Positions 3,007-51,888 of a stretch of 58,117 bases of DNA are shown piece by piece (positions within the stretch are counted from its first letter, which is position 1; each line of letters opens with the position of its first letter). The translations under genes were made by a program, and so were the position numbers. The stretch comes from a bacterium (GTDB taxonomy: Bacteria; Patescibacteriota; Minisyncoccia; UBA6257; MFKM01), in NCBI GenBank assembly GCA_030693325.1, contig JAUYAV010000005.1, positions 1 through 58,117 of the forward strand. Reading direction: 5' to 3'. The notes beneath the pieces are model-generated. The model was not told the origin of the DNA and did no database searches. It worked only from the letters and a program-made list of their open reading frames with translations.

Positions 3007-3609
3007 ATGAAAAATAAAAAATATTTTGCTTATTGTGTTCCTTCGACAGCCGTAAACGGTATCGCCGATAATTGGGAAGATTGCAGGGGTAAAGTGTCCG
3101 GAAAACCTAATGCCCGATATAAGGGTTTTGAAACTAAAAAAGAAGCCGAGGAATGGCTGATGGCCGGGGCTGATTATTCTTTTAAGGGCGGTCTTGAACC
3201 GGGAATTTATTTTGACGCGGGAACCGGAAGAGGAAAAGGCGTTGAAGCAAGTGTCACAGACGAAAAAGGCCAGAATCTTTTAGCAGAAATTTTACCTAAA
3301 AAAAATCTTAATAAATTCGGGAAATATGTTATTGCCGGCGGCGCGACCAATAACTACGGAGAGCTTTTGGCTCTTAATCTGGCTTTCAAGATAGCAACTA
3401 AGAGGAAAATTAAAAAGATTTTCGGCGACAGCCGACTCGTGATAAATTTTTGGTCAAAAGGTTTTATAAAAAAAGAAAATGTTTCAAAAAAAACGTTTGA
3501 CCTCACTGATGAAGTTTTCGCTTTACGGCAAAAATTTGAAAAAGGCGGCGGGAAAATCAGGCATATATCCGGAGATAAAAATCCGGCGGACCTGGGTTTT
3601 CATAAATAA
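3007..3609 (+). CDS. rnhA: Ribonuclease HI with N-terminal hybrid-binding-type domain
   Basis: N-terminus (YFAY...GI..NWEDC...V.G....YKGFETKKEAEEWL) resembles the RNase H1/viroplasmin N-terminal domain. The C-terminal half has RNase H carboxylates in context: IYFDAGTG, NNYGELLAL, IFGDS, NPADLG. Confidence 0.8.
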   Translation: MKNKKYFAYCVPSTAVNGIADNWEDCRGKVSGKPNARYKGFETKKEAEEWLMAGADYSFKGGLEPGIYFDAGTGRGKGVEASVTDEKGQNLLAEILPKKNLNKFGKYVIAGGATNNYGELLALNLAFKIATKRKIKKIFGDSRLVINFWSKGFIKKENVSKKTFDLTDEVFALRQKFEKGGGKIRHISGDKNPADLGFHK

Positions 3610-3618
3610 AAAAATATT

Positions 3619-3636
3619 CCGCGCCGAATGGCGCGG
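3619..3636. terminator. Bidirectional hairpin between rnhA and rnpB
   Basis: CCGCGCC-GAAT-GGCGCGG stem-loop. It is followed by a T-rich run on the plus strand and by TATTTTTTTATTT on the minus strand. Confidence 0.6.
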
Positions 3637-3644
3637 GGATATTT

Positions 3645-4106
3645 TGTTGGCAAGCTATAAGCCGGATTCTGTATTTGGTGATAATTTATCTGGGCTTTCA
3701 ATTACTTGAAAGCTCTAGCAGCACCCTCCGACTTTCGTCAGAGTACGACTTTGCACCCGATAAGGATTTAGCCGTTTCACTCTTCGACTTCATTCAGAGC
3801 AAGCCCTGAACTATTTCGAAGATTAACCCCGAAGGGTCTTCTGGTCCTTTCGAACCAGAACGTCACTGCTCGCACCTCTAAGCTTGCGCTCGGCGGCCGT
3901 TAGCCGCTATCTTCTACTAGGTGTCCGGACTTTCCTCTATCGCCACTGCTCCGCAGTGGCACGCTGATTTATGCCGATTTAAGCTGATTTATGCGGATAC
4001 TTTTTTATCAGCATTTATCAGCGGCTCCGACGATAGTCGGAGTATCAGCATTAATCCGCATGTCATTGCGAAGCAATGACGACAGCTATCACCTGGCTTA
4101 CCAGCA
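3645..4106 (-). ncRNA. rnpB: RNase P RNA (bacterial type A-like) with expanded P3 region
   Basis: The minus strand reads GAGGAAAGTCCGGAC (3923..3937) and ACAGAATCCGGCTTAT (3657..3672). P1 can form between 4096..4103 and 3648..3656. P2 is GGTGATA/TATCACC between 4087..4093 and 3677..3683. End coordinates are approximate. Confidence 0.85.
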
Positions 4107-4111
4107 GTTTC

Positions 4112-4139
4112 AGAATACAAAATTTACCGTAGTTGTCAA
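4112..4139 (-). promoter_or_regulatory. Candidate sigma70-type promoter for rnpB
   Basis: Minus strand TTGACA (4134..4139), a 16-nt spacer, then TATTCT (4112..4117). This places a start a few nt upstream of the proposed P1 5' strand. Confidence 0.4.
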
Positions 4140-4186
4140 TAAAATGATTTTGAGAATTGAGATAGGTTATAATTATAGTTTGGGAA

Positions 4187-5020
4187 ATGATAAACAATAA
4201 AGAAATCATCCAGGTCAAAAATCTTGTCAGGAATTTTGGAAAAATAAAAGCCGTTGACGGAATTTCTTTCTCAGTGAAGGAAGGGGAGTTTTTTGGGTTT
4301 CTCGGCCCTAATGGAGCCGGCAAGACAACCACGATGAGAATTATCTGCACTTTATTGGCGCCGACTTCCGGTCAGGTAAAAATCAACGGCTATGATGTGG
4401 TTAAAAATCCGGATGGCGTAAGGCGTTCCATTGGAATGGTTTTCCAGGAAGAAAGTTTGGATGAAAAATTGACGGCTTGGGAAAATTTAAAATTTCACGC
4501 TATTTTATATGATATTCCTTCCAGCCAGCAATCTTCCCGAATAATTGAGGTTTTGGAAATGGCTGGATTAGTCGGCCGTAAAGACGATTTGGTAAACACT
4601 TTTTCCGGGGGAATGAAAAGGCGGTTGGAAATCGCCCGTGGACTGCTTCATCGGCCGCGAGTTTTATTTTTGGACGAGCCAACTATGGGTTTGGATCCCC
4701 AGACCCGCCGGCATATCTGGGATTATATTCAGGATTTAAGAATCAAGGAATCTATCACCGTTTTTCTGACGACTCATTACATGGACGAAGCGGAGTTAGT
4801 TGATCGGGTGGGAATAATTGATAACGGCAAAATCATCGCTTTGGACACAGTCGCTAATCTTAAAAAACAGGTTGGCGGCGTTTCAAACCATTTAACCTTA
4901 GATGATGTTTTTTTGGCTTTAACCGGTTGGCAGATTCGCGAAGAAGCCGCCAGCGACAAGGACAGAATGGGCCGGGAAAACCGCCAGCGGAAAAGCTTAA
5001 ATAATAACCATAAAAATTAA
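4187..5020 (+). CDS. ABC transporter ATP-binding protein (ABC-2/DrrA-like)
   Basis: Walker A GPNGAGKTT, signature FSGGMKRRL, Walker B VLFLDEPT and H-loop TTHYMDEA. Confidence 0.92.
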   Translation: MINNKEIIQVKNLVRNFGKIKAVDGISFSVKEGEFFGFLGPNGAGKTTTMRIICTLLAPTSGQVKINGYDVVKNPDGVRRSIGMVFQEESLDEKLTAWENLKFHAILYDIPSSQQSSRIIEVLEMAGLVGRKDDLVNTFSGGMKRRLEIARGLLHRPRVLFLDEPTMGLDPQTRRHIWDYIQDLRIKESITVFLTTHYMDEAELVDRVGIIDNGKIIALDTVANLKKQVGGVSNHLTLDDVFLALTGWQIREEAASDKDRMGRENRQRKSLNNNHKN

Positions 5021-22646: not shown

Positions 22647-22676
22647 TCTTGAGATAAATTTTTAATTTGGAAATAA

Positions 22677-22718
22677 TTTACTATTGTAATTCCACGATCG
22701 TGGAATTACAATAGTAAA
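22677..22718. repeat. 42-nt perfect palindrome, copy 1 of a three-member family
   Basis: TTTACTATTGTAATTCCACGA|TCGTGGAATTACAATAGTAAA lies just downstream of the fba stop. Near-identical copies are at 46972..47009 and 47956..47993. Confidence 0.95.
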
Positions 22719-22725
22719 TAAAAAA

Positions 22726-29803: not shown

Positions 29804-29890
29804 GCGCAGGTGGCAGAGTGGTCAAATGCATCAGACTGTAAATCTGACGCCCTTGCGGCTACGCAGGTTCGAATCCTGCCCTGCGCACCA
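29804..29890 (+). tRNA. tRNA-Tyr (anticodon GUA), long variable arm, CCA encoded
   Basis: Acceptor GCGCAGG/CCTGCGC, anticodon loop CTGTAAA, T-arm GCAGG TTCGAAT CCTGC, ending ACCA. Confidence 0.92.
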
Positions 29891-29897
29891 AGCTACT

Positions 29898-29971
29898 GCC
29901 GAGGTAGCTCAGTGGTAGAGCAACTGTTTTGCTCCGATATTCTCAAAACTCTAAGTTTTGTTAGAATATCG
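29898..29971 (+). other. tRNA-like 5' half (acceptor strand, D-arm, anticodon-stem 5' strand) fused to a 16-bp AT-rich hairpin
   Basis: GCCGAGG TA GCTC AGTGGTA GAGC A ACTGT TTTGCTC is followed by the hairpin CGATATTCTCAAAACT-CTA-AGTTTTGTTAGAATATCG. No T-arm or matching 3' acceptor strand appears before the next tRNA. Confidence 0.6.
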
Positions 29972-29998
29972 AGAGTCCTCAATGTTCTAAAAAATTTT

Positions 29999-30070
29999 GC
30001 CACCTTAGCTCAACGGCAGAGCAACACTTTTGTAAAGTGAAGGTTCCGAGTTCAAATCTCGGAGGTGGCT
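29999..30070 (+). tRNA. tRNA-Thr (anticodon UGU)
   Basis: GCCACCT TA GCTC AACGGCA GAGC A ACACT TTTGTAA AGTGA AGGTT CCGAG TTCAAAT CTCGG AGGTGGC T. Confidence 0.92.
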
Positions 30071-30118
30071 CAGGTAAAATTTTAGAACATCGGGATAAAC
30101 AGCAGTCAAGAAAATTTT

Positions 30119-30191
30119 GCCTGGGTAGCTCAGTTGGCAGAGCACGTCTTTGGTAAAGACGAGGTCGGCGGTTCAATCCCGCCTCCAGGCT
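30119..30191 (+). tRNA. tRNA-Thr (anticodon GGU)
   Basis: GCCTGGG TA GCTC AGTTGGCA GAGC A CGTCT TTGGTAA AGACG AGGTC GGCGG TTCAATC CCGCC TCCAGGC T. Confidence 0.92.
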
Positions 30192-30247
30192 CAGGAATTT
30201 AGTTTACGAGTTTTGAGTTTATGAGTTAATGAGTAATGGATTAGCAT

Positions 30248-30595
30248 ATGTTTTTATTTGAAAATTTAGATGTTTATCAAAGAAGTTTGAAATTAGCTAT
30301 AAATATTTGTAAAATAGCTAATAATTTTTCTATAAAATTTTCTCGATTAAGGGATCAATTTATAGGTGCCGGAATTTCGGTTCCTTTAAATATTGCCGAA
30401 GGCTCGGGGAGGGATTCTCAAAAAGGAAAGAAAAATTTTTATAAAATCAGTCGGACATCGCTTTTTGAATTAATCCCGATTTTGGAAATTTGTTTAAACT
30501 TGGAATTAATAAATAAAATTGTGTATAATGAATTTAAAGAAGAGATTGAATCGCTTTCAAAAATGTTGAGTGGTTTAATGAAATCTTTAGAATAA
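30248..30595 (+). CDS. Four-helix-bundle protein (23S rRNA intervening-sequence protein family)
   Basis: FENLDVYQRSLKLA..., NIAEGSGR and FYKISRTSLFEL match the family pattern as I recall it. Confidence 0.8.
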   Translation: MFLFENLDVYQRSLKLAINICKIANNFSIKFSRLRDQFIGAGISVPLNIAEGSGRDSQKGKKNFYKISRTSLFELIPILEICLNLELINKIVYNEFKEEIESLSKMLSGLMKSLE

Positions 30596-30647
30596 ATAGG
30601 ATTAATTACTAATTAACTCATCAACTAATTACTCATTAACTTAAAAC

Positions 30648-30824
30648 ATGGCAAACGCAAAATCAAAATTTTCGGAATATTTAATAAGGCTGAAATGCGC
30701 CGTTTGTAAGCGGGTGAATTATTACACGCGCAAAAACAAGAAAACCGTTGAGAAAAAATTAGAATACAAAAAACATTGCAAGTGGTGCAAGAAACACACT
30801 ATTCATAAAGAAGCCAAGAAATAA
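30648..30824 (+). CDS. rpmG: 50S ribosomal protein L33 (58 aa, below the ORF-track size cutoff)
   Basis: My translation is MANAKSKFSEYLIRLKCAVCKRVNYYTRKNKKTVEKKLEYKKHCKWCKKHTIHKEAKK. It has the CxxC...CxxC zinc-type L33 pattern and a terminator follows. Confidence 0.85.
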   Translation: MANAKSKFSEYLIRLKCAVCKRVNYYTRKNKKTVEKKLEYKKHCKWCKKHTIHKEAKK

Positions 30825-30828
30825 AAAA

Positions 30829-30866
30829 GCCGCTGAATGATAATGATTCAGTGGCTTTTAGATTTT
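30829..30866. terminator. Bidirectional rho-independent terminator
   Basis: GCCGCTGAAT-loop-ATTCAGTGGC. The plus strand continues TTTTAGATTTT and the minus strand continues TTTTTTATTTC. Confidence 0.75.
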
Positions 30867-30883
30867 GGAGCATATCGCTCCTT

Positions 30884-31025
30884 GAATTCCAGTCGGATCT
30901 GGAAAAAAGTATATGTGGGGAGGCACAAGGCCGTGGTAAGAAGGCTAGCTACCTCCCGAAGCTAGCTGTTAGAAGCGCCACCGCCGCGTGTCCGCCCTCC
31001 CAGCTATTACCCGACAGGAGAATTC
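30884..31025 (-). ncRNA. Candidate structured small RNA: 142-nt GC-rich irregular hairpin (possibly 4.5S/SRP-like; identity uncertain)
   Basis: The arms pair from GAATTC (30884) to GAATTC (31020..31025). The minus-strand apex CAGCUAGCUUCGGGAGGUAGCUAGCC loosely resembles the SRP helix-8 CAGGUCCGGAAGGAAGCAGCC. It has its own minus-strand promoter and terminator. Confidence 0.45.
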
Positions 31026-31063
31026 GCCGTTCAGTATTGTTTTATTAAAAAAGTACTGCTATA

Positions 31064-31093
31064 ATTATAGCATAATTATTTATATTTTGTCAA
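31064..31093 (-). promoter_or_regulatory. Consensus-like promoter facing the candidate sRNA
   Basis: Minus strand TTGACA (31088..31093), an 18-nt spacer, then TATAAT (31064..31069). A plus-strand TATAAT (31060..31065) overlaps it and could serve tRNA-Trp. Confidence 0.5.
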
Positions 31094-31164
31094 GGGGGTG
31101 TGGTTCAGTGGTAGAATGCTTCTCTCCAAAAGAAGAGACCAGGGTTCGATTCCTTGCACCCCCG
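31094..31164 (+). tRNA. tRNA-Trp (anticodon CCA)
   Basis: GGGGGTG TG GTTC AGTGGTA GAAT G CTTCT CTCCAAA AGAAG AGAC CAGGG TTCGATT CCTTG CACCCCC G. Confidence 0.92.
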
Positions 31165-37004: not shown

Positions 37005-38249
37005 ATGAAAACTATTTCATTAAAAATTTTACGATGGGCTTTGAAAGGATTGGCCAAAAATTTTGTTTCGCGTTATCAGCCCGGCATTGTTGCGGTAACC
37101 GGCAGTGTCGGAAAAACTTCCACTAAAGAAGCGATTAAGGCCGTTCTTTCAAGAGAACGGCGCGTCAGGGCGACCAGCGGCAATTTTAACAACGAAATTG
37201 GAGTGCCGCTGACAATTTTGGGCGACTGGCAAAAAATTGAAAAACCGGCTTTCTGGTTCTGGGCAAGAGTAATATTATCAGCATTAATCCGCATTTTAAA
37301 TCCGCATAAATCAGCGTACCCCGAGATATTGGTTTTGGAATATGCCGCTGATCGGCCGGGCGACATTAAATATCTTTTGGAAATCGTACGGTCGCAGATT
37401 GCGGTGGTGACCGCTATCGGCAATATTCCCGCGCATGTTGAATTTTATTCCGGGCCGGAAGCCTTGGCTCGGGAGAAAAGCAAAATAGTTGAACAATTGC
37501 CGACAGTGGGATTTGCTATTTTAAACGCCGATGACGCTTTAGTACTGGATATGAAAAATCGGACTCGTTCCCAGATAATGACTTTTGGATTTAACGATTT
37601 CGCTCAGATAAAAATTACGGGATTTGAAAATTTTTCCGACAACGGGCCGACCGGCATCGCTTTTAAATTAGAATACGGCGGGAATTTTGTTCCGGTGAAA
37701 ATAAACGGCGCTTTTGGAAAAGGCCAGGCCTATGCCGCAGCGGCCGCTGCTTGCGTTGGATTGATTTTCGGAATGAACTTGGTTAAAATTGCGGAAGCCT
37801 TGGCTGAAAATTTCAAGCCGCCATTGCGAAGAATGAATTTGGTTAAGGGTGTTAAGGGAACTTTTATTATTGATGACAGCTATAACGCTTCGCCCCTTTC
37901 CATGCGGTTAGCCTTGGAAACGCTTAAAGAATTGAAAGCCAAAAGAAAAGTGGCGGTTTTGGGCGATATGCTGGAAATCGGAAAATATAGCCTGGAAGCC
38001 CATGAGGAGATAGGAAAGTTCGCCGCCGGCTTCGTTGATTTGTTGATAACTATCGGCCCCCGAGCTAAATTTATCGCCGAGGCGGCTGCTAAAGCCGGAC
38101 TGGATAAAGAAAATATTTCCAGTTTTCTTATCGCCGAAGAAGCCAAAAAAGAAGTGGAATTGAAAATTAAAAAAGGGGATTTAATTTTAGTGAAGGGTTC
38201 AAGGGCCATAGGATTGGATAAAGTAGTGGAGGAGATAAAACAGGTTTAA
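37005..38249 (+). CDS. murF: UDP-N-acetylmuramoyl-tripeptide--D-alanyl-D-alanine ligase
   Basis: Mur ligase P-loop VTGSVGKTSTKE, DDSYNASP and the C-terminal domain GDMLEIG. Confidence 0.9.
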   Translation: MKTISLKILRWALKGLAKNFVSRYQPGIVAVTGSVGKTSTKEAIKAVLSRERRVRATSGNFNNEIGVPLTILGDWQKIEKPAFWFWARVILSALIRILNPHKSAYPEILVLEYAADRPGDIKYLLEIVRSQIAVVTAIGNIPAHVEFYSGPEALAREKSKIVEQLPTVGFAILNADDALVLDMKNRTRSQIMTFGFNDFAQIKITGFENFSDNGPTGIAFKLEYGGNFVPVKINGAFGKGQAYAAAAAACVGLIFGMNLVKIAEALAENFKPPLRRMNLVKGVKGTFIIDDSYNASPLSMRLALETLKELKAKRKVAVLGDMLEIGKYSLEAHEEIGKFAAGFVDLLITIGPRAKFIAEAAAKAGLDKENISSFLIAEEAKKEVELKIKKGDLILVKGSRAIGLDKVVEEIKQV

Positions 38250-44444: not shown

Positions 44445-46958
44445 ATGTTTTACCCTTTCCAAAAAATTGAGAAGAAATGGCGGGCGCTTTGGGATAAAAA
44501 TAAAATTTACGAGCCGGATTTCAAGAAGGCTCAAAAACCTTTTTATAACCTGATGATGTTCCCTTATCCTTCGGCCGAAGGATTACACGTGGGTAATATG
44601 TACGCTTTTGTAGGAAGCGATATTTACGGCCGACTTAAGCGGATGCAAGGATACGATGTTTTTGAACCGATTGGCCTGGACGGTTTCGGAATCCATTCCG
44701 AAAATTACGCTTTGAAAATCAAAGCGCATCCGATGGAGCAGGCGAAGGTTTCCGAAAAACGTTTTTATGAACAGCTTTCGGCAATTGGCAATGGTTTCGC
44801 CTGGGATGAACATCTTGAAACTTACGACCCAGAATATTATAAATGGACGCAGTGGATTTTCGTTCAGATGTTTAAAAACGGTTTGGTTTACCGCAAAAAG
44901 CAGGCGGTGAATTGGTGTTTGGGGTGCAAGACCGTTTTAGCCGATGAGCAAGTGATTAGCGGAGAATGCGAACGGTGTTCCAGCAAAGTTATAAAAAAAG
45001 AATTGGAACAATGGTTTTTTAAAATTACAAAATACGCGGAACAGTTGCTTGAAAATCTGGAGAAAATTGATTGGTCGGAAAAAATAAAAATCGCCCAGAA
45101 AGAATGGATAGGGAAGTCGGAAGGCGCGGAAATTGATTTTTCAGTTAAAGATAGTGAAGAAAAAATAAAAGTTTTTACGACCCGGCCGGATACTTTGTTC
45201 GGCGCGACTTATATGGTTTTGGCGCCGGAACACGAGTTGATCTCAAATCTTAAATCCCAAATATCAAACATAAAAGAAGTTGGAACTTATATTAAAAAAG
45301 CGAAAGAAAAATCGGATTCGGAAAGAATAGAATTTAATAAGGAAAAAACCGGCGTGGAATTGAAAGGCATTAAAGCGATAAATCCGGCGAACAAAAAAGA
45401 AATTCCGGTTTTTGCGGCGGATTATGTTTTATCAACTTACGGTACCGGCGCGATTATGGCGGTGCCAGCGCATGACGAACGGGATTTTGAGTTCGCTAGG
45501 CGCTATGAACTTCCCGTTGTGGAAGTTGTAGCGCCGCTGATTTATGCGGATAGAAAGCAGATTGATGCTGATAACAATATCGGCATAAATCGGCAAAATC
45601 AGCATAAATCCGCGATGATTGAGCCGTATATCAGCGAAGGAATATTAGTAAATTCAGGCCGATTTGATGGAATGCCTTCCGAAAAAGCCGGATGGGAAAT
45701 CACGAAATTAACTAACGGTAAAAAAACAATTCAGTATCATCTTCGTGACTGGCTTATTTCAAGGCAGCGCTATTGGGGCGCGCCGATTCCGATGATTTAT
45801 TGCGAGGCGTGCGCGAAATTAGGAAAAGGGGATAAGCCGGAGATGCCGGGCTGGTACGCGGCCCTGGAAAAAGATTTGCCGGTTGTTTTGCCGTATGTGA
45901 AAGATTTCCGGCCGAAAGGGACAGGCGAATCGCCGCTGGCGGCCGACAAAAAGTTTTATGAAGTTAAATGTCCCGAATGCGGCAAGACGGCGCGCCGTGA
46001 AACCGATGTTTCCGACACTTTTCTTGATTCCGCCTGGTATTATTTGCGCTATCCTTCGGTGAGTTCAGGAACGGCCGATGCGGAGCCCTGGAATCCGGAA
46101 ATAACAAAAAAATGGTTTCCCGTGAATCTTTACACCGGCGGCGCCGAGCATTCGGTGCTTCATCTGCTTTACGTGCGTTTCGCGGCACTCGCGCTTCACG
46201 ACTTGAAATTGCTGGATTTCGGTCCGTCAGAGGCGCCTAGAGGAGAGCCGTTTCCCAAATTCCGCAGTCACGGCCTTTTGATAAAAGACGGCGCTAAGAT
46301 GTCAAAGTCAAAAGGAAATGTGGTCAATCCGGATGAATACATTAAAAAATTCGGCGCGGATGCGCTCCGGATGTATCTGATGTTTTTGGCGCCTTTTGAA
46401 CAGGGCGGCGATTTCCGCGATGAGGCGATTATGGGAATCGTGCGTTTTCTGGAGCGGGTTTGGGAATTATCGGACAAAAAAGAGGTGAAAGACGGTTGGA
46501 AAACCAAGGAGATTATTTTACAAAAAACCATCAAAAAAATTACCGAAGATATTGAAAATCTTAAATACAACACCGCCATTTCCGAATTGATGAAATTTAT
46601 TAAAATTTTGGAAGAATATCCCGATAAAAACAATTTTGAAATTTTCCTTAAACTTCTCGCGCCTTTCGCGCCTTTCATCGCTGAAGAGCTTTGGAGAAAA
46701 CTCGGACATAAAAAATCCATTCATTTGGAAAATTGGCCCGAGTATAATCCGCAGTTAATTAAAGAAGATAAATTTGAACTTATAATTCAGGTTAACGGCA
46801 AATTCCGGGATAAAGTTTCGGTTCCCCAAGAAATTACCGAAAAAGAAGCCGAAGAGTTGGCGGTTTCCCAAGAAAAAATCAAGAATTGCTTAAAAGACAA
46901 AAAGATAGTAAAAACAATTTTTGTCGCAGGAAAGCTTATTAATTTAGTTGTCAATTAA
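44445..46958 (+). CDS. leuS: Leucine--tRNA ligase
   Basis: Class I HIGH region (PYPSAEGLHVGN), KMSKS (GAKMSKSKGN), the CP1/editing region and the zinc motif CLGCKT...CERCSS. Contains an in-frame repeat insertion (see findings). Confidence 0.96.
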   Translation: MFYPFQKIEKKWRALWDKNKIYEPDFKKAQKPFYNLMMFPYPSAEGLHVGNMYAFVGSDIYGRLKRMQGYDVFEPIGLDGFGIHSENYALKIKAHPMEQAKVSEKRFYEQLSAIGNGFAWDEHLETYDPEYYKWTQWIFVQMFKNGLVYRKKQAVNWCLGCKTVLADEQVISGECERCSSKVIKKELEQWFFKITKYAEQLLENLEKIDWSEKIKIAQKEWIGKSEGAEIDFSVKDSEEKIKVFTTRPDTLFGATYMVLAPEHELISNLKSQISNIKEVGTYIKKAKEKSDSERIEFNKEKTGVELKGIKAINPANKKEIPVFAADYVLSTYGTGAIMAVPAHDERDFEFARRYELPVVEVVAPLIYADRKQIDADNNIGINRQNQHKSAMIEPYISEGILVNSGRFDGMPSEKAGWEITKLTNGKKTIQYHLRDWLISRQRYWGAPIPMIYCEACAKLGKGDKPEMPGWYAALEKDLPVVLPYVKDFRPKGTGESPLAADKKFYEVKCPECGKTARRETDVSDTFLDSAWYYLRYPSVSSGTADAEPWNPEITKKWFPVNLYTGGAEHSVLHLLYVRFAALALHDLKLLDFGPSEAPRGEPFPKFRSHGLLIKDGAKMSKSKGNVVNPDEYIKKFGADALRMYLMFLAPFEQGGDFRDEAIMGIVRFLERVWELSDKKEVKDGWKTKEIILQKTIKKITEDIENLKYNTAISELMKFIKILEEYPDKNNFEIFLKLLAPFAPFIAEELWRKLGHKKSIHLENWPEYNPQLIKEDKFELIIQVNGKFRDKVSVPQEITEKEAEELAVSQEKIKNCLKDKKIVKTIFVAGKLINLVVN

Positions 46959-46971
46959 GCCCAGCCCAAAT

Positions 46972-47009
46972 TACTATTGTAAATCCACGATCGTGGAATT
47001 ACAATAGTA
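46972..47009. repeat. Palindrome family copy 2 (one mismatch)
   Basis: TACTATTGTAAATCCACGA|TCGTGGAATTACAATAGTA, 14 nt after the leuS stop. Confidence 0.95.
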
Positions 47010-47955: not shown

Positions 47956-47993
47956 TACTATTGTAATTCCACGATCGTGGAATTACAATAGTA
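47956..47993. repeat. Palindrome family copy 3 (perfect)
   Basis: TACTATTGTAATTCCACGA|TCGTGGAATTACAATAGTA between convergent genes ending at 47929 and 48024. Confidence 0.95.
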
Positions 47994-48023
47994 AACCAAA
48001 TATTGATTTACTAAAATTACTGA

Positions 48024-49131: not shown

Positions 49132-49217
49132 CGGAAGCGGGAGGATTCGAACCTCCGAGGGGAATTTCCCCAACTGGTTTTCAAGACCAGCGCCATAAAC
49201 CACTCGGCCACGCTTCC
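49132..49217 (-). tRNA. tRNA-Ser (anticodon UGA), long variable arm
   Basis: Minus strand GGAAGCG TG GCCGAGTGGTTTATGGCG CTGGT CTTGAAA ACCAG TTGGGGAAATTCCCCTC GGAGG TTCGAAT CCTCC CGCTTCC G. Confidence 0.9.
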
Positions 49218-49255
49218 GCTTTGTTCACTAGTTTTTCCCGCCGTTGGCGGGATTG

Positions 49256-49335
49256 CGATTTGTAGATAAAATTTTAACAAATTTTATACAAATCGGGAAC
49301 AAGACTACCGCCTTAAACCACTCGGCCACCCCACC
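49256..49335 (-). other. Second tRNA-like 5' half (type II, Ser/Leu-like) fused to a long AT-rich hairpin
   Basis: Minus strand GGTGGGG TG GCCGAGTGGTTTAAGGCG GTAGT CTTGTTC, then the hairpin CGATTTGTATAAAATTT-GTT-AAAATTTTATCTACAAATCG. No T-arm or 3' acceptor strand. Lies directly upstream of tRNA-Ser. Confidence 0.55.
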
Positions 49336-49383
49336 CTTCCATTTTCTTTATTATTTTTCTATTATAATTTAATCAATCCGAGA

Positions 49384-49412
49384 TTGAAAGGCAAATTGAT
49401 TATTTGTATAAT
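49384..49412 (+). promoter_or_regulatory. Candidate promoter of the tRNA-Arg/tRNA-Val pair
   Basis: TTGAAA (49384..49389), a 17-nt spacer, then TATAAT (49407..49412). The predicted start falls at or next to tRNA-Arg position 1 (49420). Confidence 0.5.
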
Positions 49413-49419
49413 TCATTTA

Positions 49420-49491
49420 CCCCTCGTAGTTCAATGGATAGAACGGGAATCTCCTAAGTTCTAAATGCAGGTTCGATTCCTGCCGAGGGGA
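49420..49491 (+). tRNA. tRNA-Arg (anticodon CCU)
   Basis: CCCCTCG TA GTTC AATGGATA GAAC G GGAAT CTCCTAA GTTCT AAAT GCAGG TTCGATT CCTGC CGAGGGG A. Confidence 0.88.
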
Positions 49492-49499
49492 TGAATGAA

Positions 49500-49574
49500 G
49501 GGCGTTTAGCTCAGTGGTAGAGCGTTTCGTTGACATCGAAAAGGTCGGAGGTCCAATCCCTCCAACGCCCACCA
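49500..49574 (+). tRNA. tRNA-Val (anticodon GAC), CCA encoded
   Basis: GGGCGTT TA GCTC AGTGGTA GAGC G TTTCG TTGACAT CGAAA AGGTC GGAGG TCCAATC CCTCC AACGCCC A CCA. Confidence 0.9.
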
Positions 49575-49618
49575 GGCAGGATTTTGCACATTGATAAGCT
49601 CTATGGTACGATTAAAAA

Positions 49619-50305
49619 ATGAAATCACGCTATCATCATTTAAAGCCGAGAATAATTGCCCTTCGTAAATCAGGCAAAACATATACCGAGATATGTAAAA
49701 TTATTGGCATAAATATTTCGAAAGGCACTTTATCTGACTGGTGCGGCAGTATTTCGCTATCCCCTGAACAGCAGCAAAGAGTCGAACGTTCAATCAAAAG
49801 AGGCACAAAAAAGGGGCAAGCAGTCGCATTGGTTGTTAATAAGCTGAAAAGAGAAAAGTATATCCAAGCCATAAGAGATAGAGTGAATCATCTTCCCGAT
49901 AAGTTAAAAGATGAAAATACTTCAAAAATTGCGCTTGCAATGTTGTACTTAGGAGAGGGATCGAAAACCAAGAGGGGATCTTTAATGTTCGGCAATTCAG
50001 ATCCATTGGTTATACGTTTATTTTTGGGCTTGTTGAGATACTGTTACGATATCAACGAAAATAAATTTCGTTGTACGCTTCAATGCAGAGCTGACCAAGA
50101 TATTAAAAAACTGGAAAAATTTTGGTCCAATATTACAAAAATTCCGTTTTCGCAATTTTATAAAGCAAGGATTGATCCGAGAACCATAGGAAAACGATCA
50201 AAGAAAAAAGATTATAAAGGCGTTTGTAGAATAGATTATTTTTCTGCGGATATTTTTAATGAGCTTCAAATTATTATTGAAATTATTGGTAATATAGAAT
50301 TTTAA
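49619..50305 (+). CDS. HTH plus LAGLIDADG-like homing-endonuclease-like protein
   Basis: N-terminal resolvase-type HTH (RKSGKTYTEICKIIGINISKGTLSDWC). Central IALAMLYLGEGSKTKRGSLMFGNSDPLVIRLFLGLL resembles single-motif LAGLIDADG proteins, judged by eye. Confidence 0.5.
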   Translation: MKSRYHHLKPRIIALRKSGKTYTEICKIIGINISKGTLSDWCGSISLSPEQQQRVERSIKRGTKKGQAVALVVNKLKREKYIQAIRDRVNHLPDKLKDENTSKIALAMLYLGEGSKTKRGSLMFGNSDPLVIRLFLGLLRYCYDINENKFRCTLQCRADQDIKKLEKFWSNITKIPFSQFYKARIDPRTIGKRSKKKDYKGVCRIDYFSADIFNELQIIIEIIGNIEF

Positions 50306-51888
50306 TCGGGCCTATAGTTTAATGGTAAAATAAGTCGATGGCATCGACTAGTTGGGAGTTCGATTCTCCCTAGGTCCACTAATTGAGATTTATCACCGGC
50401 AAAATGCTGATTTAACTCGTAAATATAGCCTAATTTGGCGGTTCCAAATCCTTCATTTCGTCTGTAAGGAATTCCCTCCGGAAATATCAGCTTTTGGAAC
50501 TTTGATTGCAGGGGTGGCGCCAAATCAAACCACTGCCGGCCGAGATTGCGAATAAAACTGGTTGCGTAGACTAAGGCAGCTTCAATATCAAATTGTTCTA
50601 TTTTCGCTTCGCTTGAAGAAATTTTGACAGCGGCGACTTCGTTTTCTACCTCTTCTTTCCGTTCAATAAACTCGTCTTTGGTATAAGAGCCGTCCTCGCG
50701 CATCTCGCAGATGCGTTTTTTCTTTGCCTCGAGGAGTTTTAATTGTTTGGCATATTTCTCGGCTTCAAGTTCAAAAATTCGCCCTTTTTCCTGCCATAAA
50801 TCGAGGACAGTTTCTTTAAATACCTTGAGAAATTTCTCTTTCGGCGTAACCTGTTCGAGATAAACCAAAAACTCCTTTTCAAGATCAAGCTTATGAATGC
50901 CTTTGCCGAACATTGAGCATTCTTTGTTTTGGCAGTGGTAATAATAATATTTTCCACCATTACCCCGGGGAGCGCTGCCGGTAAGGGGTCTTGAGCAATC
51001 AGCGCACAGTACCGTCCTTCTGAGCGGGAAGTGGGGATTATATTTATTATGTTTCACTGTCCTTGTCTTGCCCGAACGAACCAGCATAATCTGATACATT
51101 TCATCCTTTGTGATCATGGGGCTGTGAAGTCCGTTTACGTCTTCACCGGTCCACGGATTGAAGATGATTCCCGCGTAGAATTTCAGATACTTTCCCAAAA
51201 TCCTATCTACTAATTGCGGGGTGCTTTTGGTCCCCCGGATATCTTTAAGGCCCCATTGATCCATCATCCGGGCCAGCTCAACCTGCGAGTACAGCCCCTT
51301 TGCGAACTCTTTAAGGGCTTTTTGGATAATCGGGAAAATCTGCTCGTCCGGCGGATCGGGCTGAGTTTTTTTCTCGCCTCGTTTTTTGAAATGGGAACAC
51401 TTATAGCCGAGAGGCTGTCTCCAGGGAAAGATTCCCTGGTTTATTCTTGTGAGCATTCCATCGCTGCATCTTTGTTTTCGGATGGCGTTATCATATTCGG
51501 CTGCCCCGGCCAGCACGGTTTCGATGAATTTTTCCGCCGGCTTGTTGCCGATGGGTTCGGTTACCGAGTGGAGGGTGGTGCCGTAATCCAGGAGAATTTT
51601 GCGGACGGCGAAATGGTCTTCGGTGTTGCGGGCGAACCTGTCAACTCGCAGGACAATAAAGGCCTGGATTTGTTTTTTGTTCTTTCGGCAGAACTCCAGC
51701 GCTTCCAGGAATTTTTTTCTGTTATTCAAACTCAAGTCCTTGGCGCTTTCGCCTTCTTCCCGGAAAAGGGCCACGATTTCAAGGCCTTTCTGCTCGCAGT
51801 ATTTGCGGCAGAGTTCCTCCTGAAATTCGAGGGAGGTTCCTTTGACCTGCTCATCGCTTGATACTCTTGTATAGATAATACCTTTCAT
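50302..51888 (-). CDS. Large serine recombinase (integrase)
   Basis: MKGIIYTRVSSDEQ catalytic-serine motif, a resolvase domain, a recombinase domain and the zinc ribbon CADCSRPLTG...YYYYHCQNKEC, then a coiled-coil-like C-terminus. An alternative upstream ATG lies at 51936. The last about 25 codons are antisense to tRNA-Ala. Confidence 0.88.
   Translation of the reverse strand: MKGIIYTRVSSDEQVKGTSLEFQEELCRKYCEQKGLEIVALFREEGESAKDLSLNNRKKFLEALEFCRKNKKQIQAFIVLRVDRFARNTEDHFAVRKILLDYGTTLHSVTEPIGNKPAEKFIETVLAGAAEYDNAIRKQRCSDGMLTRINQGIFPWRQPLGYKCSHFKKRGEKKTQPDPPDEQIFPIIQKALKEFAKGLYSQVELARMMDQWGLKDIRGTKSTPQLVDRILGKYLKFYAGIIFNPWTGEDVNGLHSPMITKDEMYQIMLVRSGKTRTVKHNKYNPHFPLRRTVLCADCSRPLTGSAPRGNGGKYYYYHCQNKECSMFGKGIHKLDLEKEFLVYLEQVTPKEKFLKVFKETVLDLWQEKGRIFELEAEKYAKQLKLLEAKKKRICEMREDGSYTKDEFIERKEEVENEVAAVKISSSEAKIEQFDIEAALVYATSFIRNLGRQWFDLAPPLQSKFQKLIFPEGIPYRRNEGFGTAKLGYIYELNQHFAGDKSQLVDLGRIELPTSRCHRLILPLNYRPD
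50308..50378 (+). tRNA. tRNA-Ala (anticodon GGC) with G3:U70
   Basis: GGGCCTA TA GTTT AATGGTA AAAT A AGTCG ATGGCAT CGACT AGTT GGGAG TTCGATT CTCCC TAGGTCC A. Confidence 0.9.

Follow-up and report, generated by a model that had tools for sequence, protein, structure and literature searches.

The RNase P RNA gene of the bacterium studied here carries the sequence of a self-contained rod of ~148 nt at the place where type A RNAs have a short P3 hairpin, and the core of this rod is built of 10-nt units in inverted arrays, which belong to a dispersed repeat family specific to this genome. The host is a tiny groundwater Candidatus Paceibacterota (CPR) bacterium with a 0.66-Mb genome (G000); its rnpB gene is located in a stretch of 58,117 nt, referred to below as the window. 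Four other genomes of the same genus (G001–G004, including the sister genome G004) and further relatives were used for comparison. The P1 and P2 helices, the position of the rod and its membership in the repeat family are demonstrated. The rod is probably a real internal part of rnpB, selfish or neutral in nature, which resembles either the Rickettsia palindromic elements (RPEs) or expansion segments and is kept in the mature RNA; its retention, its neutrality and the mechanism of its spread are what we infer from the available evidence.

A putative promoter of rnpB was identified on the minus strand at 4112..4139. It consists of a −35 element TTGACA (4139..4134), a 16-nt spacer and a −10 element TATTCT (4117..4112), matches the consensus at 10 of 12 positions, and is the sole such site on this strand between positions 3400 and 4400. 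The same layout is kept in G001–G004. Transcription would start at about 4105, a few bases past this sigma-70-type promoter, and the predicted type A RNase P RNA would comprise ~463 nt including the expansion (3643..4105, minus strand, both ends being putative). The extension of the 5′ end beyond the Rfam alignment is based on the promoter and on P1/P2 covariation, while a terminator-like intrinsic hairpin followed by a T run (3619..3636, minus strand) lies directly after the P1 3′ strand. An earlier reading of the window, made from its sequence only, had stated that P1, P2 and the P4 strand can all be placed, and all of them were indeed located on the minus strand. The P1 5′ strand (4094..4105) pairs with 3657..3646, with two mismatches among 12 positions and eight contiguous pairs (4103..4096 with 3655..3648), and the P2 5′ strand GGUGAUA (4087..4093) pairs perfectly with UAUCACC (3683..3677). 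The P4 5′ strand GAGGAAAGUCC (3927..3937) was assigned by sequence and by the Rfam alignment. Both conserved P4 strands (GAGGAAAGUCC and ACAGAAUCCGGCUUA) are found in rnpB; P1 and P2, which close the molecule, would be formed by the 5′ part of the RNA with its 3′ end, and the catalytic core would be normal after P4. The distance from the end of P2 to the P4 strand is 149 nt (4086..3938), close to the ~145 nt given by the sequence-only reading.

The upstream P1/P2 strand is common to five rnpB genes of the genus. In this sample of five related sequences, 92 of the 95 P1/P2 cells are paired, and changes on both sides occur at 5 of the 19 pairs, a number that was reached in none of 500 shuffles and compares with 0–1 in slid controls. 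For helix 1, 95% of the cells are paired and three pairs are altered on both sides; for helix 2, the respective values are 100% and two. The P2 variants are GGUGAUA/UAUCACC in G000 and G004, GGCGAUA/UAUCGCC in G001, and GAUGAUA/UAUCAUC in G002. The comparison of rnpB from related genomes, which the sequence-only reading had recommended, revealed that the other genes of the genus keep the promoter, and that in four same-genus genomes the P1/P2 5′ strand lies upstream of the gene's own P3. Moreover, the junctions of the expansion are as in the Rfam consensus: a single G follows P2, and no nucleotide separates the rod from GAGGAAAGUCC. The position of the promoter, the conserved upstream P1/P2, the both-sided pair changes and the consensus-like junctions support the location of the expansion inside rnpB, between P2 and P4, which makes the previously proposed expansion at P3 the likely arrangement.

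The expanded "P3" (3938..4085, minus strand) was delimited by its minimum free energy (MFE) fold and by its match to G004. Judging by this fold, the P3 position holds one self-contained, branched stem-loop of 148 nt as opposed to the usual hairpin of ~20–35 nt. In the MFE structure, 4084..4067 pair with 3938..3955 and onward, giving a near-continuous basal stem of 18 bp with further duplex beyond it. The MFE of the rod is −73.6 kcal/mol (z = −9.55), and none of 200 shuffles folded as well. Two hairpins had been described at the ends of this segment, and both were recovered on the minus strand with 8-nt arms that are 100% complementary: hairpin A at 4062..4080 (arms 4080..4073 / 4069..4062) and hairpin B at 3942..3960 (arms 3960..3953 / 3949..3942). 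The 3-nt loop of hairpin B is GGA, as described, whereas that of hairpin A is UUC and not the tetraloop UUCG. The two hairpins can alternatively serve as the 5′ and 3′ halves of the basal stem of the rod, and they are better paired with each other in this way, the one-rod fold having −77.9 kcal/mol versus −68.4 kcal/mol for separate terminal hairpins. The internal hairpin CUCCGAC-UAUC-GUCGGAG is present at 4042..4025 (minus strand), as reported earlier, and represents a branch of the rod by sequence and fold. The core (3963..4059, minus strand), to which the matches with other loci of the family are confined, contains 10-nt units of the ATAAATCNGC type, with three tandem units at 3998..3963 and inverted copies at 4059..4044 and 4023..4006. 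The reiteration of units noticed previously is real and exceeds chance, but recurrence elsewhere is limited to the centre of the rod (~64–126 of the 146-nt query); no copy outside rnpB has the terminal hairpins or the CUCCGAC hairpin.

When up to one mismatch was allowed, GCATAAATCNGC had 12 matches in the window, whereas 100 shuffles gave 1.48 on average and 5 at most. A pattern of two units matched the genome 31 times versus 0–2 times in each of five Markov-2 simulations, and the reversed two-unit pattern, used as a control, gave no matches. The family was defined by the two-unit pattern, since the single 10-nt unit with one mismatch was found at chance level (425 matches versus 403–460 in 10 simulations). 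In total, 17 loci belong to the family, including helix 6 of 16S rRNA and 12 sites that lie in frame within 11 ORFs, 10 of which are Pfam-named (LeuRS, LigA and GatA among them). The reading frame stays open at each of the 12 ORF-internal sites, where the stop codon of the unit is avoided and the peptides ISINQR/NQHKSA or LIYAD are read. The copies are modular, with 1–4 units of 10 nt and an overall length of 20–80 nt. The match between the rnpB units and an in-frame element of leuS, noted by the sequence-only reading, was recovered at 45536..45613 (plus strand) based on unit matches; this palindromic copy, located in the editing domain of LeuRS, has a fold z of −5.48. The leuS insert of ~22 aa is absent from G003, and the respective stretch is missing in G001, G002, and G005. 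Another in-frame copy, identified by two-unit matches, is found in a Mur ligase gene (37277..37315, plus strand). The LeuRS and GatA inserts lie in length-variable loops that relatives are without. The tip of 16S rRNA helix 6 bears a 120-nt insert of the same 10-nt units (fold z = −12.24), which is not in G003, and inverted unit arrays are found in the palindromic copies of leuS, C11:114433, and 16S. The earlier proposal that one family occupies an essential protein gene as well as a ribozyme holds, and even understated its spread, which includes 16S helix 6 and the 12 in-frame sites. The search for further RNA hosts (23S rRNA and others) gave no Rfam match at C20:132000-138500, the end of C3, the start of C12, or C15:16400-18400, and a weak BLAST match at C20:136348, considered as one more RNA host, was rejected because it lies in an AT-rich spacer.

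Like RPEs, the family has dispersed palindromic copies in frame in unrelated genes, with recurrent peptides. Sequence homology to a known RPE family would not be expected, as the organisms are unrelated. The ends of the rod pair over 18 bp in the manner of the terminal inverted repeats of MITEs. No consistent target-site duplication was seen at the inspected junctions of leuS and of rnpB in G000 and G004, and Y1 transposase (IS200/IS605, RAYT; PF01797), the sole transposase family searched, was not found in G000.

According to a heuristic count, the distance from P1 to P4 is 32–57 nt in 19 of the 25 measurable relatives and ~168 nt in G000; of the 30 loci considered, three were without the exact P4 motif, two without a candidate, and one (L013) was ambiguous. 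Short P3 hairpins are present in G002 and G003, and the RNA of G002 is plain (325 nt). In G004, the P3 is short and normal, and the rod is located between P5 and P7. The idea that the rod is an ancestral P3 split by an insertion was rejected, since G004 has the same stem elsewhere next to its short P3; the same observation supports the view that the rod of G000 replaces P3 rather than lengthening an old one. The rod block 4083..3941 is 97% identical to G004:C20:13068-13210, and the flanking genes of the two genomes share a lower identity (85–94%), a difference that might point away from neutrality, to constraint or a recent transfer. The placement of the rod in G000 and G004 is explained by no single simple event. 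One contig of run X3 has 3937 joined to 4084 via 31 other letters and then continues into the rod; this joint is the arrangement of G004, of which X3 is possibly not independent. Among the genome contigs scanned, the only other rod carrier was the contig of G004, and the rod was not found in the metagenome contigs scanned. Two-unit matches number 16 in G004 and are absent from G001, G002, and G003; some repeat sites are common to G000 and G004, and some are found in G004 only. Different units occur at the same position in other genomes: the P3 region of G001 (~160 nt) is made from its own heptamer, which is also inserted in frame in its gatA, and that of G034 (~137 nt) is made of other units. 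Genome comparison demonstrates turnover of the family, apparently via gain and loss of whole copies. A DNA contig of run X1 (13,137 nt) covers 3600..4160 and is identical to the window save one deletion of 20 nt (two units), but it is not independent support, since it may derive from the source sample of the window itself.

Based on these data, the following explanation is preferred. The rod would persist because it folds on itself and holds a peripheral position, so that the ribozyme core would be undisturbed and the rod would stay in the mature RNA. The same family, which extends the tip of 16S helix 6 (120 nt) and adds short peptides in variable loops of housekeeping enzymes, would turn over through slippage of its 10-nt units as well as through whole copies being gained or lost.

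The rival that survives best, although we consider it unlikely, holds that the rod is transcribed and then cut out by a duplex-specific nuclease such as RNase III. The functional RNase P RNA would then be split into a short 5′ fragment that contains the P1/P2 strands and a second fragment comprising the remainder, with P1, P2, and what is left of the rod keeping the two together. A precedent is set by fragmented rRNAs, whose pieces are held together in this way, and the 19 pairs of P1 and P2 could likewise join two pieces. The genome encodes RNase III (C20:198366-198758), and the long duplex of the rod, with its 18-bp basal stem and more duplex beyond, is a plausible substrate of this enzyme; however, bulges and the branch interrupt this duplex, and RNase III of E. 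coli prefers ~22 bp of regular duplex. Short insertions at known intervening sequence (IVS) sites in CPR 23S rRNA are read as RNase III-cleaved in the available part of PMC11270868. Against excision, all of the 12 ORF-internal sites are in frame and without the stop codon of the unit; in mRNAs, the element thus seems to be retained and translated, not removed from RNA. In each of the six RNA runs listed, a fraction of 0.04–0.08 of the sampled words was found. Two of these metatranscriptome runs (X15 and X16) gave short contigs that cover conserved parts of the core only (~3661..3938), none of them extending over 3942..4160; these contigs come from relatives, as judged by their many differences from the rnpB core.

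The 10-nt motif might also be a protein recognition site or a DNA signal such as an uptake sequence, with the rod recruited to rnpB and 16S rRNA for a purpose possibly tied to the undetected protein subunit of the genus, an explanation to which we give a slim chance. No match to RnpA (PF00825) was obtained in G000 or in the five genomes of the genus (assemblies 87–96% complete), and a lineage profile of RnpA gave nothing at E ≤ 1. The best six-frame match in G000 has an E-value of 1.1, and 6 nt separate rpmH from the yidC-like gene that comes next. The apparent absence of RnpA from the genus could possibly be due to divergence or assembly gaps; among bacteria such an absence would be unusual, if confirmed. 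A search for HARP (PF08745) had no match, which gives no sign of an RNA-free RNase P relaxing selection on rnpB. The contrast between the genus (RnpA in 0 of 5 genomes) and its relatives (found in 18 of 18, once the genus and the three families without it are set aside) speaks for such a role, as do the genome specificity of the motif, its presence in two stable RNAs and many mRNAs, the 97% identity of the rod between G000 and G004 despite the different sites, and the length of the unit, which equals about one helical turn. On the other hand, G002 is also without detectable RnpA, yet its RNA is plain with a short P3, and G003 has a short P3 too, so the rod is not tied to the absence of RnpA. 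The sites also differ between the sister genomes, and other lineages have unrelated units. As an uptake sequence, ATAAATCAGC is rejected: 24 exact copies in 661 kb are too sparse, known uptake sequences occurring about once per kb. A bolder version, in which RNase P RNA is a platform for movable RNA modules and the motif-bearing rods are functional in a genus without detectable RnpA, is a speculation that we would not expect to hold. In this view, one and the same rod of ~144 nt can be housed at P3 in one species and at the P5–P7 junction in its sister. If true, the rods might recruit a shared RNA-binding protein, either as a stand-in for RnpA or as a coupling of tRNA processing to the ribosome, and the family would be an undescribed bacterial generator of expansion segments acting on RNAs and proteins alike.

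The weakest alternative concerns the 5′ boundary. The Rfam model RF00010 aligns to 3957..3642 (model positions 1–367; E = 3.8 × 10−31), and rnpB scores 105.1 bits, just above the gathering threshold of 100; the failure to align P3 and the true P1/P2 accounts for this narrow margin. The 5′ end is placed at 3957, an outcome that the sequence-only reading had named as counting against itself, but the alignment has four non-canonical pairs in P1 and one in P2, and P3 is deleted from it; its P2 strand is GGCGAUA (3945..3939), with a C-A mismatch against the P2 3′ strand. That the RNA starts near 3957 without P3, the repeat being only upstream flanking DNA, would agree with the score above threshold and with the single mismatch of GGCGAUA, but can hardly be right given the mispaired P1 and P2, the lack of a promoter-like site near 3960 (the sole one on this strand being that at 4139..4112), the upstream P1/P2 strand conserved and covarying across five genomes, and the rod of G004, which is downstream of P4 and is not flanking DNA there.

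With the rod read as an internal part of rnpB, the covariance model accepts the gene but misplaces the 5′ end inwards by 148 nt, losing P1–P3, and in G004 it loses P4 too; rnpB genes of CPR bacteria that harbour inserts of this kind will therefore probably be given wrong boundaries or be overlooked. An unrelated self-folding rod of repeats would be able to take the place of the entire P3 in a bacterial RNase P RNA, and the finding of this rod at a different junction in a closely related genome offers a natural experiment on the tolerance of the ribozyme to insertions. Although the genome of 0.66 Mb has little spacer DNA, the repeat family survives in permissive loops of essential RNAs and proteins. 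Since different lineages have different units in the same loops, the origin of expansion segments would be directly testable in bacteria.

Keyword searches of the open-access literature found no description of a repeat-built P3 expansion or of in-frame repeat inserts in CPR bacteria, but several known systems share features with the present one. Cyanobacterial rnpB reportedly contains STRR repeats, with a tandem heptamer array in P12 (Vioque, 1997). The family of G001 is likewise a heptamer, whereas the units of G000 are 10 nt long and lie in inverted arrays that form a rod, which is located at P3 (G000) or between P5 and P7 (G004), and the family extends to 16S rRNA and, in frame, to proteins. 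Expansion segments of eukaryotic rRNA are said to grow by "compensatory slippage" (Hancock and Dover, around 1990). As in that process, a helix would be lengthened here by motifs and their complements on opposite arms, and the sites in one genome share motifs; unlike there, the host is a bacterium, a ribozyme is affected as well as rRNA, and the units are also found in coding sequence.

Rickettsia palindromic elements (Ogata et al. 2000, 2002) are ~150 bp long and have a family consensus, according to the accessible part of a review on MITEs (PMC10969869). The same part describes them as palindromic, dispersed, inserted in frame in unrelated housekeeping genes with a recurrent peptide, and tolerated by the host proteins, all of which applies to the present family. 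The copies described here differ in being modular (1–4 units, 20–80 nt), with units specific to one pair of genomes within the genus, and in being found also in rnpB and 16S rRNA, while the accessible part of PMC10969869 contains no RPE in rnpB. Lui et al. (2021; PMC8172020, as partly available) described large helix extensions in the RNase P RNAs of CPR bacteria. The extended or missing helices, the scores near or below Rfam thresholds and the need for manual refolding reported there recall the present gene; however, the named example is an extended P15, and the available portion of PMC8172020 mentions no P3 expansion, dispersed repeat, or change of site. Finally, bacterial rRNA IVSs, in the part of PMC11270868 at hand, are extra self-pairing hairpins at the helix tips of stable RNAs and are similar in this respect to the rod, but here the host molecule is RNase P RNA, and the in-frame copies in mRNAs argue that the element stays.

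On the minus strand of the window, the RNase P RNA gene (rnpB) is preceded by a sigma-70-type promoter (TTGACA, 4139..4134; 16-nt spacer; TATTCT, 4117..4112). After a spacer of about 6–7 nt it continues with the 5' strand of P1 (4105..4094), the 5' strand of P2 (GGUGAUA, 4093..4087), a single G (4086) and a self-pairing segment of 148 nt (4085..3938), hereafter the rod. Next come GAGGAAAGUCC (3937..3927) and the RNase P core, and the gene ends with the 3' strand of P2 (UAUCACC, 3683..3677), the conserved ACAGAAUCCGGCUUA, the 3' strand of P1 (3657..3646) and a terminator-like hairpin with a T run (3636..3619). Two perfect 8-nt hairpins, a CUCCGAC hairpin and reiterated 10-nt units, all described in the sequence-only reading, are present within 4140..3615; the first hairpin, to which a UUCG loop had been assigned, has a 3-nt loop when its arms are 8 nt. 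Eleven tRNA genes elsewhere in the 58-kb window also exceed the Rfam threshold, and several form clusters at 29804..31164 and 49132..50378.

The Rfam model RNaseP_bact_a matches 3957..3642 (105.1 bits; gathering score, 100), and its 5' end thus falls within the repeat segment. The sequence-only reading had stated that such a start would refute it, the repeat then being only upstream flanking DNA. However, the alignment deletes P3 and marks five pairs, four in P1 and one in P2, as non-canonical; its 5' end is therefore not trustworthy. Four lines of evidence (the promoter, the conserved 5' strand, covariation and the gene order in the sister genome G004) support a 5' end near 4105. The promoter is the only promoter-like site on the minus strand in 3400..4400, and its layout is conserved in G001–G004, the other four genus members compared, which also keep a 5' strand matching GCTGGYAAGYCAGRYGATAGCT with their own P3 directly next to it. 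When the five full-length genes of the genus are aligned, 92 of the 95 cells of the proposed helices, P1 with 12 pairs and P2 with 7, hold standard pairs, and five pairs have changed on both sides, a number reached by none of 500 column shuffles; when the helices were slid by 1–3 columns, pairing was 20–65%, with 0–1 both-side changes. P2, for instance, reads GGUGAUA/UAUCACC in the window's own genome (G000) and in G004, GGCGAUA/UAUCGCC in G001, and GAUGAUA/UAUCAUC in G002. This covariation supports the upstream 5' end without proving it, five related sequences being few. In G004, moreover, the rod is situated past P4 and so cannot be upstream flanking DNA.

Rfam matches to RNase P RNA were obtained in 40 of 41 related genomes, above the cut-off in 20 of the 41. 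Among 30 loci fetched, P1 was located heuristically, by complementarity to the sequence past the 3' conserved motif; the exact P4 motif was present in 27, and 25 of these gave P1 candidates. By this heuristic, the P1-to-P4 distance is 32–57 nt in 19 of the 25 loci, while the longest distances are about 168 nt in G000, about 160 nt in G001 and about 137 nt in G034, a relative outside the genus. Two other loci are intermediate (L023, 81 nt; L007, 64 nt), L013 has no clear value, and within the genus the P3 of G002 and that of G003 are short hairpins. The expansion between P2 and P4 proposed from the sequence alone is unusual in size among these relatives. The rod junctions reproduce the P3 layout of the Rfam consensus, with one G after P2 and the rod end abutting GAGGAAAGUCC.

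The whole 471-nt region folds with a z-score of −10.9, and the 146-nt segment alone has a minimum free energy (MFE) of −73.6 kcal/mol (z = −9.55), a value matched by none of 200 shuffles. In the MFE structure the terminal hairpins unfold and anneal to one another, forming an 18-bp basal stem (4084..4067 with 3938..3955), beyond which further stem sections lead to a three-way branch carrying the CUCCGAC hairpin and a hairpin built from the units. A fold constrained to keep both local hairpins is less stable by 9.5 kcal/mol (−68.4 versus −77.9 kcal/mol).

In G004, a block 97% identical to window 4083..3941 is found at another site of the same gene. The order there is P2, a normal short P3, GAGGAAAGUCCGGACACCUA, the rod and the P7 region, which places the rod between P5 and P7; a small extra hairpin occupies the P5–P7 spot in G001 and G003. 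The short P3 of G004 is nearly the same as that of G002, whereas in G000 it is missing and the rod stands in its place. Since G004 has both the short P3 and the rod, the basal stem belongs to the rod and not to an old P3, and in G000 one helix has replaced another. No single simple event converting one arrangement into the other was found, and no clear target-site duplication was seen at the rnpB junctions of G000 and G004. Assembled DNA contigs from two sequencing runs show both orders: that of G004 in run X3, which may not be independent of G004, and that of G000 over 3600..4160 in a 13,137-nt contig of run X1, which may be the source sample. Over this interval the X1 contig differs from the window by one 20-nt deletion (3963..3982), exactly two 10-nt units of the three-unit tandem array, which suggests variation in unit number in the population or between assemblies. 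Further lineage-specific insertions are seen elsewhere in rnpB: besides the extra P5–P7 hairpin, G003 (L018) carries ~70 nt inserted ahead of the P8 loop and an AT-rich insert of ~110 nt in the P15 region, and G004 (L042) has ~47 nt more than G000 in the P12 region.

The protein subunit RnpA (PF00825) was matched in 18 of 26 genomes searched; none of the five genus genomes gave a match, nor did three relatives outside the genus (G005, G011, G012). In the five genus genomes, a profile built from the RnpA proteins of four relatives retrieved nothing at E ≤ 1. A relaxed six-frame scan (4321 ORFs), whose best hit in G000 had an E-value of 1.1, showed no RNR-type motif. At the canonical rnpA locus of G000 (contig C20, 10874–14002; L085), only 6 nt separate rpmH from a yidC-like gene downstream of it. 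A search for HARP (PF08745) likewise gave no match. Since the assemblies are 87–96% complete, an RnpA gene that is strongly diverged or missing from them is possible. The rod is not tied to the apparent absence of RnpA, because in G002 and G003 RnpA is likewise undetectable but P3 is short.

The host, a Candidatus Paceibacterota bacterium, has a genome of 0.66 Mb, in which only the central part of the rod (query positions about 64–126 of 146) recurs. The two-unit pattern ATCNGCNNWAATCNGC has 31 matches in the 661-kb genome, versus 0–2 in each of five Markov-2 simulations and none for the reversed control pattern. These matches fall into 17 loci: two stable RNA genes (rnpB and 16S rRNA), 12 ORF-internal sites and three spacers or gene boundaries. 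Two loci, C12:5 and C3:6732, seem to be versions of one, which may reflect strain variation or assembly redundancy; C3:6241–6747 (contig end) and C12:5–511 (contig start) both end or break at a repeat copy.

According to Rfam, helix 6 of the G000 16S rRNA (C20; L031, 684..2298) is extended at its tip by an insertion of 120 nt, in which the 10-nt units lie within a longer stem (fold z = −12.24); this insertion is absent from the 16S of G003. The 16S sequences of G001 (C15, L067), G002 (C111, L064) and G004 (C10, L065) break at a contig end at positions 27–57, before helix 6, and an assembly-breaking repeat at helix 6 would produce such ends. A separate AT-rich 16S insertion of 75 nt, near model position 458, is not made of 10-nt units. 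No 23S rRNA was found within 6.5 kb downstream of the 16S (C20:132000–138500, L073), and the rRNA genes are apparently unlinked, in line with what passages of PMC8172020 report for CPR bacteria.

The 12 ORF-internal sites lie in 11 ORFs, 10 of which were named by Pfam: two Mur ligases, LeuRS (editing domain), LigA (adenylation domain), a GatA-type amidase (two sites), RecG, ribulose-phosphate 3-epimerase, a Wzy_C/TPR protein, a class I aminoacyl-tRNA synthetase and MiaA; the remaining ORF, of 156 aa, has no name. At all 12 sites the frame is open and the same reading phases are used, giving the peptides ISINQR...NQHKSA (forward) and LIYAD (reverse). The 10-nt unit contains TAA in one phase, and the ORF arrays end or reset before TAA comes into frame. 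The LeuRS insert adds ~22 aa relative to G003 and, like the two GatA inserts, occupies a loop whose length varies among relatives. By hand comparison, the uninterrupted leuS site of G003 (L070) resembles the first unit (window 45550..45570) at 15 of 21 positions, which hints that copies may seed at sites already resembling a unit. The observation behind the sequence-only reading is confirmed, and its interpretation, that one repeat family entered both a ribozyme and an essential protein gene, is supported and extended to 16S rRNA and to 12 sites in 11 ORFs. A second, unrelated family, a near-perfect palindrome of ~40 nt, has many copies in G000 and occurs in G004; copies in the window lie at 46969..47009, about 22661..22723 and 47956..47995, and one lies directly past the leuS stop and looks terminator-like.

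The two-unit pattern has 16 matches at nine loci in G004 and none in G001, G002 and G003, with one diverged copy of the family in G002. Sites common to G000 and G004 are recG, C11:17791, C3:6732, an aminoacyl-tRNA synthetase gene (C17:14425) and rnpB, at a different position within the gene. Three sites are found in G004 only; the leuS copy of G000 is absent from G004, which has another short insert there. Because the G004 assembly is 89% complete and yielded no gatA, the number of G000-only sites is uncertain. In G001, a dispersed heptamer of its own, CATCAAG (15 matches with up to one mismatch, versus one for the control), builds the ~160-nt P3 region and is read in frame as HQASSVK in gatA, in the same GatA loop as a G000 copy. 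In G034, from another family of the order, the ~137-nt P3 region consists of inverted arrays of different ~10-nt units with small flanking hairpins. Thus, the phenomenon is recurrent in the order, with the same permissive loops and lineage-specific units.

According to the best reading of these data, the rod would be transcribed and, as we infer, kept in the RNA as a self-folding peripheral helix that leaves the core undisturbed. Retention is argued for indirectly by the mRNAs, in which the clear frame constraint on the family indicates that it is not removed. It is possible that RNase III, which is encoded in the genome, cuts the rod out and leaves a two-piece ribozyme. The spread of the family is probably a mix of gain and loss of copies and unit slippage, as in the 20-nt variant. 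A Y1 transposase was not found in G000.

Repeat-invaded rnpB genes and in-frame palindromes like the Rickettsia palindromic elements are kinds already known, and a keyword search of open-access papers found no prior description of the combination seen here. Both the structure of the rod and its context across the genome are striking, and they offer a system that can be tested. Among the closest precedents are STRR repeats inside cyanobacterial rnpB, reportedly described by Vioque in 1997, and the compensatory-slippage view of rRNA expansion segments. Another close precedent is provided by Rickettsia palindromic elements, which have entered housekeeping genes without breaking the frame (review PMC10969869). 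Large helix extensions in CPR RNase P RNAs, with P15 as an example, and short IVS-like insertions in CPR 23S rRNA appear in parts of Lui et al. 2021 (PMC8172020) and of PMC11270868, respectively. The G000 rod differs from all of these in its site, with P3 replaced, and in its relocation between sister genomes; the family differs in its modular, palindromic build from 10-nt units and in being one genome-specific family present jointly in a ribozyme, rRNA and proteins.
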